Assembly: GCA_002352425.1 (NCBI GenBank)
Contig: DEIK01000074.1
Span: forward strand, 7,346 to 71,345
Length of the DNA stretch: 64,000 nucleotides
Direction of reading: 5' to 3'
Origin: Rhodobacteraceae bacterium UBA2776
GTDB lineage: Bacteria; Pseudomonadota; Alphaproteobacteria; Rhodobacterales; Rhodobacteraceae
Shown: piece by piece, positions 5,182 to 52,737 of the stretch
Layout of the letters: each line of letters opens with the position of its first letter
Numbering within the stretch: position 1 is the stretch's first letter
Notes under the pieces: generated by a model
What the model was told of the DNA's origin: nothing
Seen by the model: the letters and a program-made list of their open reading frames with translations, nothing else
Database searches by the model: none
Made by a program: the position numbers and the translations under genes

Positions 5182-6468
5182 ATGACCGACGAAACTCTCG
5201 TTCAAGAAACCCTCGCGCTGGCTGATCTTAAAGTCAAAACACCAAAAGACTTGCTGGAATATGCTGAAGAGCTGGAAATCGAAAACGCATCGACCATGCG
5301 CAAGGGCGAGATTATGTTCTCGGTTTTGAAGGAGCGGGCCGAAGATGGTTGGGAAATTTCCGGTGATGGTGTGCTTGAAGTGCTTCAGGACGGGTTTGGA
5401 TTTTTGCGCTCGACTGAAGCGAACTACCTGCCAGGACCTGATGATATCTATGTTTCGCCAGAAATGATCCGTGCATTATCGTTGCGCACAGGTGACACCA
5501 TTTCCGGTGTGATCCGTGCACCTGATGACAATGAGCGTTATTTTGCGATGACAAAAATCACGCAGATCAATTTTGAAGAGCCTGAGAAAAACAAGCACAA
5601 GATCAATTTTGATAATCTGACGCCGTTGTATCCTGATGAGCGATTTAATCTGGAAATTAAAGATCCGACCCATAAAGATAAATCTGCGCGTATCATTGAT
5701 TTGGTTGCGCCGATTGGGAAAGGTCAGCGTTGCTTGATCGTGGCGCCACCGCGCACGGGTAAAACGGTGTTGTTGCAAAACATCGCTACGTCGATCGCGG
5801 CCAACCACCCTGAATGCTATTTGATTGTTTTGCTAATTGACGAGCGTCCAGAAGAGGTGACCGACATGCAGCGCAGCGTTAAGGGCGAAGTTGTGTCCTC
5901 AACATTTGATGAACCTGCGTCGCGCCACGTTGCAGTTGCCGAAATGGTTATCGAAAAAGCCAAACGTCTGGTCGAACATAAGCGCGACGTTGTGATCCTG
6001 CTGGATTCTATCACACGTTTGGGTCGGGCCTTTAACACGGTTGTACCATCCTCGGGCAAGGTCCTGACAGGCGGTGTGGACGCAAACGCCCTACAGCGCC
6101 CTAAACGCTTTTTCGGCGCTGCACGGAACATCGAGGAAGGTGGTTCACTTAGTATCATTTCAACGGCCTTGATTGATACAGGTAGCCGCATGGACGAAGT
6201 AATCTTTGAAGAGTTCAAAGGCACCGGCAACTCCGAGATTGTTTTGGATCGTAAGGTGGCAGATAAGCGCGTCTTCCCGGCGATGGATATTTTGAAATCC
6301 GGCACGCGTAAGGAAGAACTGTTGGTCGATGCAAAAGACTTGCAGAAAACCTATGTGTTACGCCGTATTTTGAACCCGATGGGAACCACAGATGCCATCG
6401 AATTCCTGATGTCCAAATTGAAGCAAACCAAATCGAACGAAGAGTTCTTTGATTCAATGAACACGTAA
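5182..6468 (+). CDS. rho: Transcription termination factor Rho
   Basis: [31 protein letters not shown] motifs; start set at ATG 5182 (MTDETL). Confidence 0.98.
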
Positions 6469-45433: not shown

Positions 45434-46471
45434 TTGAAAACTCTTGCGATCACATCAATGCGTAACGAGGGCCCCCACTGTTTGGAGTGGATTGCCCATC
45501 ATTTGGCCGCGGGTGTTGACCACTTTTTAATCTACACGAATGATTGTGATGACGGCACTGATCTGATGCTTGATACATTAGAAAACGCTGGATTAGTGAC
45601 GCATATCCGGCAGGTTCCCAAAGGCAAACGCACGGTGCAATGGCAGGCGCTGAAACATGCCACGGATCATCCGTTGGTCGCACAGGCAGATTGGGTTTTG
45701 GTGACGGATTGTGATGAGTTTATCAACCTTCGCAGCCCTTATGGGACGCTGAAAGAAATGATCGAAGCCTTGCCTGACGAGGTGGATGCGATGGCGATGC
45801 CGTGGCGGTTGTTTGGCCATTCCGGCCAGATTGAAATGCGCGATGAGATGACGATTGAACGGTTTACCCGCGCAGCACCGATCGACATTCAACTGCCGCT
45901 GGCACATTTTTTTAAATCATTGTTTCGCCCCGCCGCGTTTCGTCAGTTTGGTGTGCATCGTCCAAAGCGCAAGCAGGACCGTTTGCCAAAATGGGTTGAC
46001 GGAGGTGGCAATGCATTGCCCGAGGGTTTTGCCAAACAGGACGGTCGCATCAACATGTTTGGCATCGAGGCCGGCACTGATTTGGTGCAGTTGAACCATT
46101 ATTCTCTACGCTCAGCGGAATCCTTTATGGTCAAACGGGCTCGTGGATTGCCCAATCATACGGAGCGCGAGATTGGTTTAGGCTATTGGGTCGAGCGTAA
46201 TTTCAACACGGTAGAGGACCCTAGCATTCAGCAAATGATGGGTGCGACAAAGGCCAAGTTGGATCAACTGAAGTTGATTAAAACAATCTCTAACCTGCAC
46301 AAAAACGCATGCCAGCGCCACAAAGACTGTTTTAACGAAATGATGACAAATCGCGCTGATATTCAATTGTTTTGGCACCTGACTTTAAGCGCCTCCAGTC
46401 AGCCACCCAGTGTAACTCTTGCGCGTACCCAGATTAACCGGATCATAAAGGCTGAAAACCAAGATGGCTAA
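45434..46471 (+). CDS. Glycosyltransferase, GT2-like (Glyco_tranf_2_4/GT92-type)
   Basis: MRNEG..LEW..HH, NDCDDGT, DCDEF (DxD), WRLFG, LNHY. Confidence 0.88.
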   Translation: MKTLAITSMRNEGPHCLEWIAHHLAAGVDHFLIYTNDCDDGTDLMLDTLENAGLVTHIRQVPKGKRTVQWQALKHATDHPLVAQADWVLVTDCDEFINLRSPYGTLKEMIEALPDEVDAMAMPWRLFGHSGQIEMRDEMTIERFTRAAPIDIQLPLAHFFKSLFRPAAFRQFGVHRPKRKQDRLPKWVDGGGNALPEGFAKQDGRINMFGIEAGTDLVQLNHYSLRSAESFMVKRARGLPNHTEREIGLGYWVERNFNTVEDPSIQQMMGATKAKLDQLKLIKTISNLHKNACQRHKDCFNEMMTNRADIQLFWHLTLSASSQPPSVTLARTQINRIIKAENQDG

Positions 46472-48734
46472 AGCCGCAAATAAGTCGAACTTCTTTTTGC
46501 AAACGACCCTGAATGTTCAGCAGGCGGGAGATGTGACTTTGCTTGATGCGATTTCGCATGCTGATGGCGATAATCGTAAAATGCAGTTGTTTTTTGCTGC
46601 GGGCACGCCGCCCGAGCAGTTTCGAGCGGGTAAAGGGCTGGAAATCATCGAAATGCGCAGCCTGGGCGAGGCGCCAATGCTGAATTGTATAGCCAAAGGT
46701 AAGTCTGGTCCTGTGTCGATTGATATTGGGAACCAGACCCTGAAAATTAAAGCCGAAGACCCTGAAACAGCCGTTTTCGCGGGTCTTAACGTGGGTTTTG
46801 CGATCCGCAACGGTGAATCGCTTGAAACCACGTTGGAATGGCTGAACTACCACGTCACGCATCATGGTATGAACGCTGCGCTTATTCTGGATCGGGCCAA
46901 ACCACAGGCCGATAAGGCCTACGCCAACCAGTTGAAAAACAAAGCCGCCAAGATCAAGGGACTGGAACGACTTGTACTGCTGAGAGCAAAAGTACCGCTT
47001 GGCAGAGCAGATTTGCCAGCGGAATCTCACCCTTTCAACGTGCCAGGTGCGCCGGGTAAGGATCGGATGGAAATTCCGAAAGGTGATGCGTGGAATTCGC
47101 CACTGGGTGAGTTGCAGATGTTTGAACTGCTGCGAGCGCGGTTTCTTGATCATGCCCGCGCTGTGATGAACATTGAGTTGTATGATCTGGTGGTGATTGG
47201 CAAAGGCAAAAATGTTTTTGACCGTGCGGTTGTGGCCAGCAATGGCTGTATTCAGATGGATGGCCATCAGATTTACCCGTGGCGCGTGCGCAATGGGGAT
47301 GAAGCCACATTTGGTGATCATATCTGCCGCCAGTTTGACGCCAAGGGTACGCGTAAACGGTGGTGTATTGCGCCTGCCACAGCCAAGGAAAATGTGGTTT
47401 GGCGTTTGATCCGTGTGGTTGGTGCGACCCCTGCACCGGAGGAGGCCGTGCCATATTTGCGTTGCATGGCTTTGCGTCATCCGACTGATACAGTGTCAAA
47501 AATTGTGCCTAAAACCAGCCTGATTGAAGATGAAAATCTGCTGGCCATGTCGCAGAATATTTTCAAACATAAACCGGTTCGCACACCTGAGGAAAATGCA
47601 GGGCTAAAGTGTCGTGATACCAACCGCACCGCCATCGTTACCACCATGAAAAACGAAGGGCCGTTTATCTTGGAATGGCTGGCGTACCACCGCGCCATCG
47701 GGGTTGATGATTTCTTGGTCTACACCAATGATTGCACGGATGGCACGGATACAATGCTGCAAATGTTGCAAGACAAAGGCATCGTCCAGCACCGTGAAAA
47801 TCCATTTAAAACCAGCGGCTTAAAGCCACAGCACGCAGCGCTTCAGGCGTCGGATGATGAGCCAATGATCCAGAATGCAGATTGGTTGATCTGTATGGAT
47901 GTCGATGAGTTTATAAACATCAAATGCGGCGCCGGGCGGCTTGATGATCTGTATGAGGCGATTGGCGACGCCAACATGATTTCGATCACTTGGCGGTTGT
48001 TTGGCAATAGTGATTTGCATGAATTCAAAGATGGCCTGATCATTGAGGATTATGATCTGTGCGCCCATGAATTGATCCGAAAACCACATCAAGCCTGGGG
48101 CTTTAAAACCCTGTTTCACAACATTGGTATTTTCAAAAAAATGGGGGTGCATCGCCCCAAGGGGTTAAAGCCGCAATTGTGGGAAGATATCAATTGGGTC
48201 AATGGATCAGGGGCGCAGATGCCCAGCGACATGTACCGTAACGGCTGGCGTTCCACGACCGAGACCTATGGTTATGATCTGGTGCAGTTGAACCATTATG
48301 CGGTGCGGTGCGCCGAGAGCTTTTTGGTCAAGCGGGATCGCGGGCGGGTTAACCACGTCGATCGGGACCAAGGCATGGCTTACTGGTTTCGGATGAACAA
48401 TAACGCGATGAAGGAGCATTCGATTCAGCGCATGGTGCCGGCCGTGCGTGCCGAGCTGGACGCGCTGATGGCTGACCCGGACATCGCCGCCGCACATGCG
48501 CATTCAGTTAAAATGCACAGCGAAAAAATTGTAGAGCTGAAGGCGGGTGAAAACTATGCCGCGTTCTATAAGGAATTGACCAGCCCGCGGTTAGAGGCCC
48601 TTTCGAAACTGCATGCGCATTTCGGGGCGAACGTGTTTCTGCTGGGACCAGAAGTTGTCCCTGACGAGGTTCTGGAGAAAGACCCCAATGAGGATTTCTT
48701 TTTCACTGTCGAAAAAGGCGAAACGACACATTAA
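46464..48734 (+). CDS. Large glycosyltransferase with C-terminal GT2-like domain and degenerate N-terminal GT-like domain
   Basis: C-half MKNEGPFILEW, DVDEF, GVHRPK, LNHY; N-half RNGESLETTLEWLNYH. Confidence 0.85.
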   Translation: MAKAANKSNFFLQTTLNVQQAGDVTLLDAISHADGDNRKMQLFFAAGTPPEQFRAGKGLEIIEMRSLGEAPMLNCIAKGKSGPVSIDIGNQTLKIKAEDPETAVFAGLNVGFAIRNGESLETTLEWLNYHVTHHGMNAALILDRAKPQADKAYANQLKNKAAKIKGLERLVLLRAKVPLGRADLPAESHPFNVPGAPGKDRMEIPKGDAWNSPLGELQMFELLRARFLDHARAVMNIELYDLVVIGKGKNVFDRAVVASNGCIQMDGHQIYPWRVRNGDEATFGDHICRQFDAKGTRKRWCIAPATAKENVVWRLIRVVGATPAPEEAVPYLRCMALRHPTDTVSKIVPKTSLIEDENLLAMSQNIFKHKPVRTPEENAGLKCRDTNRTAIVTTMKNEGPFILEWLAYHRAIGVDDFLVYTNDCTDGTDTMLQMLQDKGIVQHRENPFKTSGLKPQHAALQASDDEPMIQNADWLICMDVDEFINIKCGAGRLDDLYEAIGDANMISITWRLFGNSDLHEFKDGLIIEDYDLCAHELIRKPHQAWGFKTLFHNIGIFKKMGVHRPKGLKPQLWEDINWVNGSGAQMPSDMYRNGWRSTTETYGYDLVQLNHYAVRCAESFLVKRDRGRVNHVDRDQGMAYWFRMNNNAMKEHSIQRMVPAVRAELDALMADPDIAAAHAHSVKMHSEKIVELKAGENYAAFYKELTSPRLEALSKLHAHFGANVFLLGPEVVPDEVLEKDPNEDFFFTVEKGETTH

Positions 48735-48776: not shown

Positions 48777-48805
48777 TTGACAAAGCGGGCTATTATCTAC
48801 ATATT
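48777..48805 (+). promoter_or_regulatory. Internal sigma70-type promoter of the glycan cluster
   Basis: TTGACA-N17-CATATT in the gap upstream of 48876. Confidence 0.5.
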
Positions 48806-48875
48806 TTAAGCGAAACAGGCACAATAAGCACTGCAAGTATAACAGGCCGAATGGCTGATAAAATTGAGGAATATC

Positions 48876-50420
48876 ATGGTACTCCCGACAATCGGAACAC
48901 TTTGGATTGGTCCTGAACTGAGCTGGCTGGAACAGCTGTGTTTGCAATCGTTTTTGGACCACGGGCACGAGGTGGTTTTATACACCTATGGCCAAGTTAA
49001 AGGTGTGCCAAAAGGCGTGAAGATCGCAGACGCAGATGATGTGTTGCCCAGCAAGAGCATCATCCGCCATGCGCGCACAGGTAGCCCTGCTTATCATGCC
49101 GATGTGTTTCGCCTGCATATGTTGAAACAGACGGACTATATATGGGCCGATACTGATGCGTTTTGCTGTCAGCCTTGGGACATTAAAAAGGGCAAGCATT
49201 TTCACGGATGGATTTCCGATAAGAAACCACAGGTGAACAACGGTGTTTTGCGTCTGCCAAAGTCTAGCAAAACGCTGGCGGCGATGATCAAATTCACCAG
49301 TGATGAATATCCGGTTCCGCCGTGGCTGTCCAAGAAGGACAAGGATGAGCTGCAGGCCTTGAAAGACAAGGGCGAGGGCATGCATGTGTCCTTGATGCCG
49401 TGGGGCGTTTGGGGGCCGGATGCGTTGACTTGGTTCCTGAATGACACGGGTGAAATCAAGTATACTCAAGACAAGCATGTGATCTATCCCGTGCCGTTTT
49501 CCATCGCAGGCGTCACCCTTAATCCCAATCGGCGTGACAAGGCCCGTGGGATGATTAAGGATGACACGCTTTCAATCCATTTCTGGGGGCGTCGTTTTAG
49601 AAACATTGCCGCCAAATATGGCGGTGTGCCGCCAAAAGGCAGCTATGTTGCCGAGCTGTGTAAACGTCACAAGATTAACCCCAGGAAAACAGCCCATATG
49701 ATGCAAAAGAAAAATATCGTAGCGCCGATCCAAGATGTGGATTTTTCCATGTTCGATGATGCTGATGTGGCTAACCTCATTTTGCAACGCTCCGAAGTGG
49801 GTGAGGTTGGGCAGGAAATCCGCGATTGGCTGGATGGCAACGACGCACCTTTGCAAAAATACGCTAAGGATAATCGCGATGCAATTTTGAACGAGGCCCT
49901 CGAAGTGGCGCGGCGGGAATGCGAGTTTTTTGTCGAAGCTACGGATGACCCAAAGCCAAAGAAAATTGCAGATATTGGATGTGGGTATGCTTTTGCCGAT
50001 CTGTTTTTGTACAACCGTTACAAATCCAATATTACCTTGATCGACATTGAGGAAAGCAAAGACCGCCATTTTGGCTTTGCAGAATCTGGTTCGGGCTATG
50101 CGAGTCTGGATAAGGCGCAGAAGTTTTTGACCAAAAATGGTGTGCCTAAGCAAAAGATCACGCTGATCAATCCGAATAAGAAAAAGGTTTCCAAGATCGG
50201 CGATTTTGATCTGGCGATTAGTCTGGCCTCTTGTGGGTTTCACTATCCGGTTTCCACCTATGATGGGTTTTTCAGCAGTCAGATAAACGACGGCGGTGCC
50301 GTGGTTTTGGATATCCGCAAAGGTTCGGGTGGGATTGGGGAAATGAAGTCATTTGGCACTGTTGATGTGCTGGCAAAGCACCCGAAATATTCAACGGTTT
50401 TGGCCCGCGCAGATGGTTGA
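48876..50420 (+). CDS. Fusion of DXD-motif glycosyltransferase (GT32-like) and class I SAM methyltransferase
   Basis: LWIG..LS.LEQLCLQSF, ADVFR, WADTD (49149-49157); IADIGCG (49971-49985), IDIE, FDLAIS. Confidence 0.8.
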   Translation: MVLPTIGTLWIGPELSWLEQLCLQSFLDHGHEVVLYTYGQVKGVPKGVKIADADDVLPSKSIIRHARTGSPAYHADVFRLHMLKQTDYIWADTDAFCCQPWDIKKGKHFHGWISDKKPQVNNGVLRLPKSSKTLAAMIKFTSDEYPVPPWLSKKDKDELQALKDKGEGMHVSLMPWGVWGPDALTWFLNDTGEIKYTQDKHVIYPVPFSIAGVTLNPNRRDKARGMIKDDTLSIHFWGRRFRNIAAKYGGVPPKGSYVAELCKRHKINPRKTAHMMQKKNIVAPIQDVDFSMFDDADVANLILQRSEVGEVGQEIRDWLDGNDAPLQKYAKDNRDAILNEALEVARRECEFFVEATDDPKPKKIADIGCGYAFADLFLYNRYKSNITLIDIEESKDRHFGFAESGSGYASLDKAQKFLTKNGVPKQKITLINPNKKKVSKIGDFDLAISLASCGFHYPVSTYDGFFSSQINDGGAVVLDIRKGSGGIGEMKSFGTVDVLAKHPKYSTVLARADG

Positions 50421-51774
50421 GACAAAGACGATTCTTCAGGCGCTTGATCTGGATGAGGTGGGGCGGATCGCTGATATCAATGGCGGCACACCTGATCTGG
50501 CGATTGCGCTACACAACCGATTTGGCAGCAAAATCGACGTGATCTGTTTGGACAGCGAAGGCGGGTATATTGAGCCGGATAAAGATATCCGTAAATATAC
50601 CAAAAAGCTGCAAAAAGCCGGTGTTGAAAAATCAGCTATTCGGTTTGTGACAAAGCAAAGGATGCTCAAATCCTATGACGTGGTCACCACGGTTGGAAAT
50701 TTCGGGTCGCGCTACAAGATCAAGCATATCAAACGTCTGTTTGATAAGGCACTGCACCCGTTATCACGGGTGGTAATTGATATCAAAAAGGGCAGTGGTA
50801 GCTATCCGTTTTTGAACGACTACGGCGGATGCAATACCCTATCAGCGCCAACGCGAGACAGCACAGGTATGGTGGTGATGTCGGTTGAACCCGTGTCCGA
50901 ACCGGCGGGCGAATGGTCTGCGATTGCCAAAAAACTGGCAGGCAAAAAGGGCTTTTTCACTGATTGTGGCGAGCATTCCTTTCTTTACATCCCGCGTGGC
51001 GACACATTGGTTGTGACCTTTGACAACCTTGATATAGCCATGACCAAACGTGATGATCGGCGTCCTTGGGGCTTTGCGTTTATTGAGTCTGAAAACTGGT
51101 CCATGCTGGGCGTTATGGCCAACGGCTGGACATGGTTTCGCGATGGGGCTGTGACGGATGAATTTAATCGTCTACGCGACAGTGGTTTCTTTGATCAATT
51201 CAAGCGCGTGGTGTTTTACGGGGCCTCGATGGGTGGGTACGGCGCTGCGGCTTATTCAGCGGCGGCCAAGGGATCAACTGTATTTGTGATCAGCCCACAA
51301 TCGACGTTGGATAAGGAAATCGTTCCGTGGGAAATGCGCTATAAAAAGGTCTGGGGCCGCGATTTTTCCGGCGAATATGGCGATGCTTCTATCAGCAGTC
51401 AATCGGCTGCCGACGTGCATTTGATGTATGACCCTTATGTTGCGCCCGATACGGGTCATGCCAAACGGTTCACGGGTGAAAATGTTACGCATTGGCGCTG
51501 TCCGTTGCTTGGCCACCGGCTAGGGTCATCCTTGCAGCAAATGGGAATTTTGCAGGAAATCGCGCGCAAATCCATTTTGGGCGAGTTAGACCAGCTGACG
51601 TTTTACAAATTGCTGCGCAAGCGCCACGAATTTCCGCGCTATCAGCGTGAACTGGCCAATCTGGCACTGGATCGAGGCCGCCCTGAATTGGCGCGCCGCG
51701 TTTGTCGCTTTGTATTGGCGCAGCGCAAAGACCGGTTTTTCCAAAAAATGCTGGCCCGTATCGCCAATGATTAG
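50413..51774 (+). CDS. Fusion of degenerate methyltransferase-like domain and alpha/beta hydrolase
   Basis: N-domain aligns by eye with the upstream MTase domain (IADINGG, VVIDIKKGSG); C-domain LVVTFDN and GASMGG nucleophile elbow (51220-51234). Confidence 0.75.
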   Translation: MVETKTILQALDLDEVGRIADINGGTPDLAIALHNRFGSKIDVICLDSEGGYIEPDKDIRKYTKKLQKAGVEKSAIRFVTKQRMLKSYDVVTTVGNFGSRYKIKHIKRLFDKALHPLSRVVIDIKKGSGSYPFLNDYGGCNTLSAPTRDSTGMVVMSVEPVSEPAGEWSAIAKKLAGKKGFFTDCGEHSFLYIPRGDTLVVTFDNLDIAMTKRDDRRPWGFAFIESENWSMLGVMANGWTWFRDGAVTDEFNRLRDSGFFDQFKRVVFYGASMGGYGAAAYSAAAKGSTVFVISPQSTLDKEIVPWEMRYKKVWGRDFSGEYGDASISSQSAADVHLMYDPYVAPDTGHAKRFTGENVTHWRCPLLGHRLGSSLQQMGILQEIARKSILGELDQLTFYKLLRKRHEFPRYQRELANLALDRGRPELARRVCRFVLAQRKDRFFQKMLARIAND

Positions 51775-51849: not shown

Positions 51850-52737
51850 ATGCGCACAGATATCAACATCGTTTATCATTTGGGTGCGCCCCACACAGAC
51901 AATGATCAAATTACATGGTCTTTGCGCAAAGACGCGGATTTGCTGGCCGAAAAAGGCGTTATGATGCGCCGCCCTGGGGAATATCGGCAAGTTCTAAAAG
52001 AAATGATCCTTGAATTGAAGGGAGAGGACCCGTCGGTCGTAGATCAGGAGAATCTGCTTTCCGCTATCATCAAAAACCAGCAGGTTGATCGTTTGATTAT
52101 GTCTGATCCCCGGTTTTTGGGAGTGCCTGCGTGGATGCTGTATGGCGGTTCGCTTTATCAAAATGCGGCGAAAAATACGGGGCGCATTCGGGATTTGTTT
52201 CCAGACAACCCCTGCGAGTTTCACCTTGGTATTTCGTGTCCTGCCACCTTTCTTCCAGCGGTTTTTAAGGCTCAAACCGACAAGACCTATGAGCAGTTTA
52301 TTGATGGTTGCGATTTGGCGACCCTTCGGTGGTCCAATGTCATTCGCGAAATCCAAGAGGAAAACCCAGATTGCCCGCTGAATGTGTGGTGCAACGAAGA
52401 TACGCCGATCATTTGGCCGACAATCCTGCGTGAGATCGCGGGACTAGATCCGCAAACACGTCTGGCTGGCGAGTTGGATGTCATTCAGCAAATCATGTCC
52501 GAGGATGGTGTTGCGCTATTGGTCAAATATCTGGACGAGCGGCCCAACCTGACCGAAATTCAACGCCGCCGTGTGCGGGGTATTTTCCTTGAGAAATTCT
52601 TTTTGGATGAGGCAGTTGAAGAAGAAATCGATCTGCCCGGATGGGCGGATGAAACCGTAGATGCGTTAACAGAAATCTACGAAGACGACATTGAACGGAT
52701 CGAGAGCTTGCCGGGTGTAAACTTTATCACGCCCTAA
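51850..52737 (+). CDS. Conserved hypothetical protein, sulfotransferase-like fold suspected
   Basis: IVYHLGAPHT resembles the xHxGxxKT PAPS-binding loop; acidic C-terminus. Confidence 0.6.
   Translation: MRTDINIVYHLGAPHTDNDQITWSLRKDADLLAEKGVMMRRPGEYRQVLKEMILELKGEDPSVVDQENLLSAIIKNQQVDRLIMSDPRFLGVPAWMLYGGSLYQNAAKNTGRIRDLFPDNPCEFHLGISCPATFLPAVFKAQTDKTYEQFIDGCDLATLRWSNVIREIQEENPDCPLNVWCNEDTPIIWPTILREIAGLDPQTRLAGELDVIQQIMSEDGVALLVKYLDERPNLTEIQRRRVRGIFLEKFFLDEAVEEEIDLPGWADETVDALTEIYEDDIERIESLPGVNFITP

Follow-up and report, generated by a model that had tools for sequence, protein, structure and literature searches.

The database label of a 514-aa protein from Rhodobacteraceae bacterium UBA2776 reads "class I SAM-dependent methyltransferase" and nothing more. 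The question that this locus raises is what the other half of the protein does, and whether a methyl group placed on a glycan by such an enzyme would end the growth of the chain or decorate it. The gene lies in a 64,000-nt stretch of contig DEIK01000074.1 (the window), and the initial annotation had read it as a DXD glycosyltransferase fused to a methyltransferase that adds a sugar and caps the chain. All motifs that were quoted then are present in the protein (LWIG at aa 9, ADVFR at aa 75, WADTD at aa 90, IADIGCG at aa 364, and IDIE at aa 389). Scans with the 514-aa protein itself yielded nothing usable. Neither domain matched Pfam, even at an E value of 0.1, no NCBIfam threshold was reached (the best hint was the sugar O-methyltransferase NanM, with an E value of 0.017), and a single-sequence search of the PDB gave marginal methyltransferase matches only. 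The domain identities therefore rest on family profiles and on AF2 modeling combined with Foldseek. The AF2 model of the full protein is confident, with a mean pLDDT of 90.6 and a pTM of 0.75, and it consists of two domains. The gene and the first of these domains are as follows.

48876..50420, forward strand: whole open reading frame (514 aa, reading frame open), a predicted GT32-like glycosyltransferase fused to a predicted class I SAM methyltransferase
48876..49715, forward strand: N-domain (aa 1-280), a predicted GT-A-fold DXD glycosyltransferase of the GT32 clan, from profile searches against the PDB, Foldseek, and the Pfam matches of relatives
49149..49157, forward strand: DXD motif D92-T93-D94, in which D92 and D94 are invariant in 64/64 relatives and which aligns with the DSD of SetA

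For most residues of the N-domain, the pLDDT is above 90. A family profile searched against the PDB found the glucosyltransferase domain of Legionella SetA (E values of 8.5e-5 and 1.1e-7 in two profile runs), and the alignment places the DTD of the N-domain over the DSD in the SetA structure. Foldseek with the N-domain returned SetA, YeGT, PaToxG, and glycogenin at E values of 1e-6 to 1e-7. Residues W10, F78, R79, D92, D94, and G180 are invariant among 64 diverse relatives of the N-domain, and D76 of the D76..R79 motif is invariant in 23 full-length orthologues. When the 64 relatives were compared with Pfam, 15 matched Gb3_synth (best E value, 3.4e-9), 6 matched Gly_transf_sug, and 4 matched Caps_synth, so that the N-domain itself appears, at the level of sequence, to belong to the GT32-clan models only transitively, through its relatives. 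Enzymes of the GT32 clan (Gly_transf_sug, PF04488; Gb3_synth, PF04572; Caps_synth, PF05704) and the SetA/GT44-like toxins share with the N-domain the GT-A fold as well as the (S/A)D..R, DXD, and downstream G-P motifs. Compared with the rest of the clan, the N-domain family is a distinct, Rhodobacterales-centered, and highly modular subfamily, often joined to GT2_4/GT92-like, methyltransferase, or hydrolase domains. With the modeled GT-A fold, the SetA profile match, the invariant DXD, and the GT32 Pfam matches of relatives, the earlier prediction of a GT32-like glycosyltransferase is supported.

The second half of the protein contains the following features.

49728..49946, forward strand: predicted helical cap at the N terminus of the methyltransferase module (aa 285-357), from the AF2 model and stand-alone relatives
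49947..50417, forward strand: predicted Rossmann-like class I SAM methyltransferase core (aa 358-514), from Foldseek and the Pfam matches of relatives
49965..49991, forward strand: SAM-binding motif I, IADIGCGYA (aa 364-372), a motif of the ADIGCGY[AG] type found in 50/50 C-type domains
50037..50051, forward strand: acidic post-I motif LIDIE (aa 388-392), where strand beta-2 ends, conserved in relatives
50229..50249, forward strand: family-specific motif SCGFHYP (aa 452-458) after strand beta-4, conserved in relatives

The order of strands and helices in the model of the C-domain is that of the seven-stranded Rossmann-like methyltransferase fold, and Foldseek returned RedM, SgvM, DnrK, RsmC, and other O- and C-methyltransferases at E values of about 1e-7. 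Relatives of the C-domain matched Methyltransf_23, _31, and _25 in Pfam, and among 12 stand-alone relatives 4 matched Methyltransf_23 (best E value, 9.7e-7). In a profile comparison with the PDB, motif I lines up with the DIGCGTG found in methyltransferases of solved structure. Residues D366, I367, G368, G370, L388, I389, D390, and E392 are invariant in the 12 stand-alone relatives, and the last four are invariant or at least 90% conserved in the 23 full-length orthologues. The same holds for the SCGFHYP motif, of which C453, G454, H456, and P458 are invariant in the stand-alone proteins; in the orthologues, G454 is invariant and the other three are at least 90% conserved. By inference, acceptor binding or catalysis may take place at this motif, and H456 could serve as a general base. 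The class I methyltransferase with an IADIGCG motif and an acidic IDIE that had been proposed is supported by intact motifs and, in the model, by the matched fold.

The helices between the two domains were originally taken for a linker, possibly a coiled one that acts as a ruler. Helices do exist at aa 295 to 357, but they are the methyltransferase module's own cap. In the AF2 model, aa 285 to 357 form five short helices of 5 to 17 residues each, and the same segment begins the stand-alone C-domain proteins, where DFSMF (D..S.F), LQRSE, and W..GD..PL are conserved. A coiled-coil ruler was rejected on account of the shortness of these helices and their conservation in stand-alone methyltransferases.

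Could the fusion be a sequencing artefact, or could one of the domains lack its predicted fold? Both had been named as grounds for giving up the idea. The 649 homologues include orthologues of the full length, which were found at about 45 loci in assemblies of Rhodobacterales; some of these come from isolates, of Leisingera, Palleronia, Rhodovulum, and Aliiroseovirius-type genera. As about 45 independent assemblies, isolates among them, carry the same fusion, an artefact is ruled out, and GT-A and methyltransferase folds are both matched by the models. The glycosyltransferase-methyltransferase fusion is real and conserved. The N-domain family as a whole was found in 139 of 301 genus-sampled genomes.

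Signals upstream of the gene are as follows.

48777..48805, forward strand: candidate sigma-70-type promoter TTGACA-17-CATATT, matching 10/12 consensus positions
48866..48869, forward strand: Shine-Dalgarno sequence GAGG, 6 nt 5' of the ATG and kept in the Marinosulfonomonas intergenic alignment

An alternative TTG start is present at 48864, and the ATG position is the start in all homologues. The candidate promoter lies within the 141-bp gap 3' of the upstream glycosyltransferase gene and is the top consensus match between 43800 and 54000, a 10-kb region in which the total number of promoter-like matches is no higher than expected by chance. Its GTTGACA -35 element is invariant in seven Marinosulfonomonas intergenic regions that are elsewhere 63% identical; a promoter candidate of the gene's own had been noted earlier.

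The gene is part of a Rhodobacterales-specific module that comprises a GT2_4/GT92-like protein (GTa), a two-domain glycosyltransferase (GTb), the GT32-like domain, an alpha/beta-hydrolase-like domain (H), and at times a sulfotransferase-like protein. The order of GTb, N-C, M2-H, and then a 295-aa gene is conserved, and Rosetta-stone fusions (N-M2-H, N-C-H, N-H, N-B-H, and N-N-N-B-H) tie the module together. For the 295-aa neighbor, a search of the PDB by sequence with its family profile found nothing; its fold is loosely sulfotransferase-like (TM, 0.36 to 0.40). The gene directly downstream is the following.

50413..51774, forward strand: M2-H partner gene, a degenerate methyltransferase paralogue (M2) joined to an alpha/beta-hydrolase-like domain (H), from sequence comparison

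It overlaps the N-C gene by 8 nt (ATGGTTGA) and is next to or fused with the N-domain gene at about 58 of 78 loci. M2 shares 26% identity with the C-domain (E value, 3e-11); it has ADING(Q/G)AP where the GxG motif would be, and SCGFHYP is absent from it. Relatives of H match Abhydrolase_6 and Esterase in Pfam.

Between the GT32-like domain and H, the number of methyltransferase modules varies from zero to three per orthologous locus (78 loci). Within Marinosulfonomonas alone there are three states, with two, one, or no predicted active methyltransferase modules, and in three sister Marinosulfonomonas MAGs the C-domain was secondarily lost while everything else was kept. In the tree, the N-M2-H clade is nested within the N-C clade. 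Shimia and related genera have orthologous modules without any methyltransferase; other natural variants are Leisingera, with N-C followed by M2-H, and carriers of an additional FkbM gene. Loci that lack a methyltransferase retain H, even as a direct fusion to N, so the role of H is independent of methylation. A "writer/eraser" pair formed by the C-domain methyltransferase and the M2-hydrolase was set aside, since H outlasts the loss of the methyltransferase.

The observed folds, motifs, motif conservation, fusion, and phyletic pattern are, we think, probably those of a soluble enzyme with two activities, transfer of a sugar and O-methylation of the glycan, the latter being a lineage-variable decoration. 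The protein would be a soluble, cytoplasmic glycan-tailoring enzyme within the Rhodobacterales glycan module. Its N-domain, of the GT32 clan, would catalyze sugar transfer in the metal-dependent manner of a GT-A enzyme; going by precedent in the family, it would be a retaining enzyme that uses a nucleotide sugar to add a hexose in alpha linkage, and it may put this hexose onto the glycan made by the neighboring glycosyltransferases. The C-domain, a predicted active class I SAM methyltransferase, would then most likely O-methylate the added sugar or an adjacent one, in the presumed order of adding first and methylating afterwards. Methylation would be a variable decoration and not an obligatory chain-length terminator.

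A group that is not a sugar hydroxyl, such as the carboxyl of a uronate, could also accept the methyl group. In this alternative, the C-domain would form a methyl ester on glucuronate or galacturonate, or methylate a protein or lipid, and M2-H would act on the same modification. We consider it unlikely. The fold matches of the methyltransferase do not single out sugar O-methyltransferases, and the partner gene joins a degenerate paralogue of the methyltransferase to a hydrolase/esterase-like domain, but this domain is kept, as described above, where no methyltransferase exists, and the weak NanM hint points to a sugar O-methyltransferase. The genes flanking the module in Marinosulfonomonas are ugd and one for an NAD-dependent epimerase/dehydratase (Pfam Epimerase), perhaps a UDP-glucuronate 4-epimerase; in Leisingera and others, these two genes lie outside the conserved module. 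That the flanking is confined to Marinosulfonomonas speaks against the polyanionic uronate substrate suggested earlier. That suggestion had also been based on a basic protein surface. The protein is indeed rich in lysine (9.5%, versus 2.4 to 7.1% in the neighboring genes) and has a pI of 8.66, but most orthologues have a pI of 5.4 to 6.8, so the high lysine content and basic pI are a local compositional trait that gives no support to a uronate-binding surface.

The add-and-cap enzyme of the initial annotation would add and methylate the last sugar, upon which polymerization would stop and export would be licensed, with the helices setting the chain length. The model for this is WbdD of E. coli O9a, a chain terminator composed of a kinase and a methyltransferase with a coiled-coil ruler. 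Terminal methylation caps are known in ABC-transporter-dependent glycans, and the glycosyltransferase-methyltransferase WsaE has been proposed to cap likewise (PMC2943079). A KpsM/KpsT-like ABC transporter is encoded elsewhere in the genome, on another contig; it is the sole ABC-2 locus, its ATPase is short (217 aa, KpsT-like), and no connection of this locus to the module was found. Nevertheless, we regard a terminator of this type as improbable. Pfam, NCBIfam, and fold results show no kinase domain, the partner domain being a glycosyltransferase, and the helices belong to the methyltransferase module, as in the stand-alone proteins. The Wzt_C cap-reading domain (PF14524) is absent from the protein's own 99%-complete genome. 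The variation in methyltransferase number, the absence of any methyltransferase from the modules of Shimia and related genera, and the deletion of the C-domain in the sister MAGs with the rest of the module retained argue against an obligatory terminator.

It is also conceivable, though we give it a low probability, that the module serves a pathway outside the envelope and makes a cytoplasmic polymethylated glycan or glycosylates and methylates a protein. This reading arises because the module is all soluble (no transmembrane segment in any of its five proteins), lacks an initiating phosphoglycosyl transferase, a polymerase, and an exporter in cis, and occurs in unrelated genomic contexts. The methylmannose and methylglucose polysaccharides of mycobacteria are cytoplasmic polymethylated glycans that follow an analogous logic. 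The version with a protein substrate stems from the Foldseek result that, of the solved GT-A structures, the nearest belong to enzymes that glycosylate proteins, protein glucosyltransferases among them, which may reflect a bias of the PDB. Very unlikely is a non-catalytic scaffold role for one domain, for example a methyltransferase domain that binds glycan or tethers the glycosyltransferase to partners: M2 is retained despite its lost SAM motif and the 514-aa protein has no Pfam match, but the conservation of motif I across the C-type domains, of the post-I acid, of SCGFHYP, and of the DXD across the N-domain relatives is the pattern of active sites.

The preferred reading, a tailoring enzyme that adds a sugar and methylates the glycan as a variable decoration, concerns a family that is widespread among marine Rhodobacterales. 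As its glycosyltransferase half is invisible to Pfam, recognizing that half sets right how hundreds of proteins are annotated. The series of zero to three methyltransferase modules across genera, and of two, one, or no predicted active ones in a single genus, offers a natural series with which genotype could be related to the O-methyl-sugar content of roseobacter surface glycans, and these glycans matter for interactions with phages, grazers, and hosts. Mechanistically, this is an expected type of enzyme and no new principle is involved. Literature searches for GT32 and methyltransferase in Rhodobacteraceae or Leisingera found no paper, and a search for GT32, DXD, and capsule gave one fungal paper only.

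How does the protein compare with known systems? With WbdD it shares a class I SAM methyltransferase in glycan biosynthesis, and in the comparison of the C-domain profile with the PDB WbdD was among the marginal matches only (E value, about 0.7). Unlike WbdD, the protein has no kinase and no coiled coil, its genome holds no carbohydrate-binding Wzt partner, and its methyltransferase is joined to a glycosyltransferase. The premise that capping methyltransferases are either paired with a kinase or stand alone is not supported, since WsaE (PMC2943079) and A64R (PMC4691112) are glycosyltransferase-methyltransferase fusions. WsaE, of the Geobacillus stearothermophilus S-layer glycan, is a soluble protein with a methyltransferase and two rhamnosyltransferase domains that methylates the type of sugar it adds (PMC2943079). 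It has a glycosyltransferase and an O-methyltransferase on one polypeptide, as predicted here, which places the two in a shared functional class, not a homology family. In WsaE the methyltransferase is N-terminal and followed by two glycosyltransferase domains, whereas here it is C-terminal and there is one glycosyltransferase domain. The wsaE gene lies beside wzm/wzt in an ABC-transporter-dependent cluster, with the methyl group as the proposed terminating cap (PMC2943079); the module described here differs in having no transporter in cis and in that methylation is dispensable in relatives. For A64R of chlorovirus PBCV-1, the proposal is that it transfers a terminal sugar, which it then methylates (PMC4691112), and its domain order, with the glycosyltransferase N-terminal and the methyltransferase C-terminal, is the same as here. 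A64R by name was not among the Foldseek matches listed. Three viral proteins, a Catovirus "Glycosyltransferase and methyltransferase domain protein," a Klosneuvirus glycosyltransferase, and a 605-aa phage "DXD sugar-binding motif" protein, were each aligned with the model by Foldseek over more than 530 columns across both domains, at 12 to 13% identity and with a different relative orientation of the domains (rmsd, 16 to 18 Å over the full alignment). The protein is an uncharacterized member of an already known glycosyltransferase-methyltransferase fusion type.

The fusion of a glycosyltransferase to a methyltransferase, described in the initial annotation of this stretch, is real. The target protein has 649 homologues, with full-length orthologues of 514 to 528 aa at 50 to 89% identity. 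With one genome scanned per species, the fusion recurs at about 45 loci, including those of isolates of Leisingera, Palleronia, Rhodovulum, Aliiroseovarius and Pseudogemmobacter, among others, which argues against a sequencing artefact. The nearest fused relative, in a Marinosulfonomonas MAG, shows 92% identity and identical synteny. The gene is single-copy in its own genome, and the family of its N-terminal domain is present in 139 of 301 genus-sampled Rhodobacteraceae genomes. Because these proteins are named only 'class I SAM-dependent methyltransferase' in the databases, their glycosyltransferase half is unannotated. The record of one locus (L013, JAHVJD010000004.1) bears the title Nocardioides marinus (Actinomycetota), yet the tree places this locus among Leisingera sequences; mislabelling or contamination of the assembly is probable.

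48777-48805 (+), promoter candidate TTGACA-17-CATATT, the top consensus match within 10 kb
48866-48869 (+), Shine-Dalgarno GAGG, read from the sequence
48876-50420 (+), open frame of the target gene, 514 aa

Translation probably starts at the ATG at 48876, since this codon follows the Shine-Dalgarno sequence and the start position is the same in all homologues. The gene does have a promoter candidate of its own, as was noticed earlier. Such consensus matches are no more numerous in this region than chance would give. GTTGACA, the -35 element of the candidate, does not vary among seven intergenic regions of Marinosulfonomonas whose alignment is elsewhere 63% identical, and can reasonably be read as a phylogenetic footprint. 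The protein is indeed lysine-rich (K 9.5%, pI 8.66). The proposal of a basic surface suited to a polyanionic uronate does not hold for the family, as most orthologues have a pI of 5.4 to 6.8.

Neither half of the protein was recognized in Pfam and NCBIfam scans, and we therefore turned to profiles and to structure prediction. The AF2 model, for which 23 orthologues were aligned, was confident (mean pLDDT, 90.6; pTM, 0.75). The five motifs quoted in the initial annotation are all present (LWIG at aa 9, ADVFR at 75, WADTD at 90, IADIGCG at 364, and IDIE at 389), and they are not chance matches, given the invariant positions in 64 N-domain relatives and 12 stand-alone C-domain relatives. In a Foldseek search of the PDB with the model, the N-terminal half matched GT-A glycosyltransferases, namely the glucosyltransferase domain of Legionella SetA, YeGT, PaToxG, and glycogenin. 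An orthologue profile matched the solved SetA domain (E 8.5e-5), with DTD aligned to the SetA DXD, and a deeper N-domain profile improved this match to 1.1e-7. W10, F78, R79, D92, D94, and G180 are invariant in all 64 diverse relatives, some of which match GT32 models of Pfam (Gb3_synth in 15, Gly_transf_sug in 6, and Caps_synth in 4). These results agree with the earlier assignment and indicate that the N-terminal half would be a divergent GT32-clan DXD glycosyltransferase.

Similarly, the C-terminal half matched RedM, SgvM, DnrK, and plant and bacterial O-methyltransferases in the PDB (Foldseek E about 1e-7), and, of its 12 stand-alone relatives, 4 matched Methyltransf_23 and others matched Methyltransf_31, _25, _11, and _12. 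None of the 12 departs from the D-I-G-x-G, L-I-D-x-E, S..CG.H.P, and D.R patterns, and ADIGCGY[AG] occurs in 50 of 50 C-type domains. The C-terminal half is therefore predicted to be a divergent class I methyltransferase with its SAM motifs intact, in agreement with the class I assignment made earlier. SCGFHYP, after strand 4, is family specific and invariant, and would occupy the usual place of acceptor and catalytic residues. The helices described as a linker exist, as five short helices at aa 285-357 of the model, but not in the role of linker or ruler. Stand-alone relatives of the methyltransferase start exactly there, with D.S.F, LQRSE, and W..GD..PL conserved, so that this region forms a helical cap at the N terminus of the methyltransferase module; a coiled-coil spacer was rejected on the same grounds.

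The gene order is ugd, GTa, GTb, target, M2-H, a gene for a 295-aa protein, NAD-dependent epimerase, and then rimP, nusA, and infB. GTa is GT2_4/GT92-like.

46464-48734, GTb, 756 aa, GT2_4/GT92-like domain in the C-terminal half only (aa 396-513)
50413-51774, M2-H, a methyltransferase-type domain (M2) fused to an alpha/beta-hydrolase-like domain (H)
51850-52737, 295-aa acidic protein (pI 4.45), conserved after M2-H at many loci

The N-terminal half of GTb (about 390 aa) has no family match, yet it is 55 to 93% identical in nearly every locus. The start of M2-H and the stop of the target share 8 nt (ATGGTTGA). M2 is a degenerate paralogue of the C-domain (26% identity, E 3e-11) with ADING(Q/G)AP in place of the GxG glycine loop and without RHFGF and SCGFHYP, and H carries GASMGG, YDP, and GH. 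The 295-aa protein has no sequence match in Pfam or PDB. Its model is confident (pLDDT, 91), and the nearest folds are tyrosylprotein and heparan sulfotransferases at a TM of only 0.36 to 0.40, so that it may loosely be called sulfotransferase-like; in its GAPHTD motif the usual PAPS-loop Lys is not evident.

Across the census the conserved core is GTb, N, and H (78 loci), and the methyltransferases that lie between the last two vary.

Domain architectures in the census (N, GT32-like; C, class I methyltransferase; B, GT2_4/GT92-like; hyphen, fused; plus sign, separate genes)
N-C + M2-H: majority of loci
N-C + FkbM + M2-H: 11 N-C loci (L002, L003, L004, L008, L014, L017, L018, L020, L025, L026, L030)
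N-M2-H, without C: L040:6452-8671, L043:7968-10217, L046:2810-5041
N + C-H and N-C-H: L050, L052, P0087
N + H, without methyltransferase: Shimia, Halocynthiibacter
N-H: L070, L071
Large fusions, e.g., N-N-N-B-H: L059

The extra FkbM-family gene (Methyltransf_21; 233 to 293 aa; L002 copy at 5706-6416) is absent from the window. Giant open frames (L059, 1549 aa; L057, 1386 aa; L021, 1077 aa; P0121, 1473 aa) join one to three GT32-like domains to a GT2_4/GT92-like and a hydrolase-like domain, and these Rosetta-stone links bind the entire module into one functional unit. The N-M2-H proteins (739 to 749 aa) come from sister Marinosulfonomonas MAGs and precisely miss the C-domain. In the N-domain tree the three (100/100) nest in the N-C Marinosulfonomonas clade (99/95), itself within a 51-row clade dominated by N-C, and thus the C module was lost secondarily in close relatives of this organism, N-M2-H being the derived form. 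The genus Marinosulfonomonas shows three states, with two predicted active methyltransferases (C and FkbM), one (the window), or none. This evolutionary result is the more interesting one: a slot for zero to three methyltransferase modules lies between a constant GT32-like domain and H, and their number changes even inside one genus.

The best-supported reading of the target protein is a soluble bifunctional tailoring enzyme. We infer that the GT32-like domain, for which family precedent points to a retaining mechanism, would add a hexose to a glycan assembled with GTa and GTb, and that the fused methyltransferase would then O-methylate the added residue or a neighboring one; donor, acceptor, and order of steps belong to this proposal. 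The phyletic pattern of the methyltransferase modules argues that methylation is a decoration which is optional and evolves fast, and argues against an obligatory terminator; antigenically variable surface glycans may typically behave in this way. Alternatively, an all-soluble, exporter-less, mobile module could make a cytoplasmic methylated glycan or modify a protein, which we consider unlikely. All five module proteins lack transmembrane segments, and in Leisingera the module lies among unrelated genes without an exporter; flanking by ugd and the epimerase is confined to Marinosulfonomonas and a small number of others. The genome has a single ABC-2 polysaccharide-type transporter locus, on contig C100 and thus away from the window contig (L081:7975-16183; GT2, KpsM-like permease, 403-aa protein without Pfam match, 217-aa KpsT-like ATPase, 1173-aa ORF, and NKWYS 'capsular polysaccharide synthesis' protein). 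This locus could export the product in trans; no link between it and the module was found. A WbdD-type obligatory terminator with a ruler fails, as the target has neither kinase nor coiled coil, no Wzt_C cap reader was found anywhere in the 99%-complete genome, and the module pattern is that of optional methylation. The initial observation is thus confirmed and its interpretation supported in part: the domain identities and the fusion stand, and the ruler, cap, and polyanion binding do not.

The target represents an uncharacterized, mis-annotated family of an enzyme kind that is already known. When predicted structures of viral proteins were searched by fold, more than 530 columns over both domains aligned to each of three proteins: a Catovirus 'Glycosyltransferase and methyltransferase domain protein', a Klosneuvirus glycosyltransferase, and a phage 'DXD sugar-binding motif' protein. 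WsaE of Geobacillus stearothermophilus has one methyltransferase and two rhamnosyltransferase domains, and its methyltransferase domain makes a 2-O-methyl cap (PMC2943079). The methyltransferase domain of chlorovirus A64R is C-terminal and has been suggested to methylate the terminal rhamnose added by A64R (PMC4691112). With these precedents, the premise that capping methyltransferases are only kinase paired or stand-alone is incomplete. Like WsaE and A64R, the target protein combines glycosyltransferase and methyltransferase domains.
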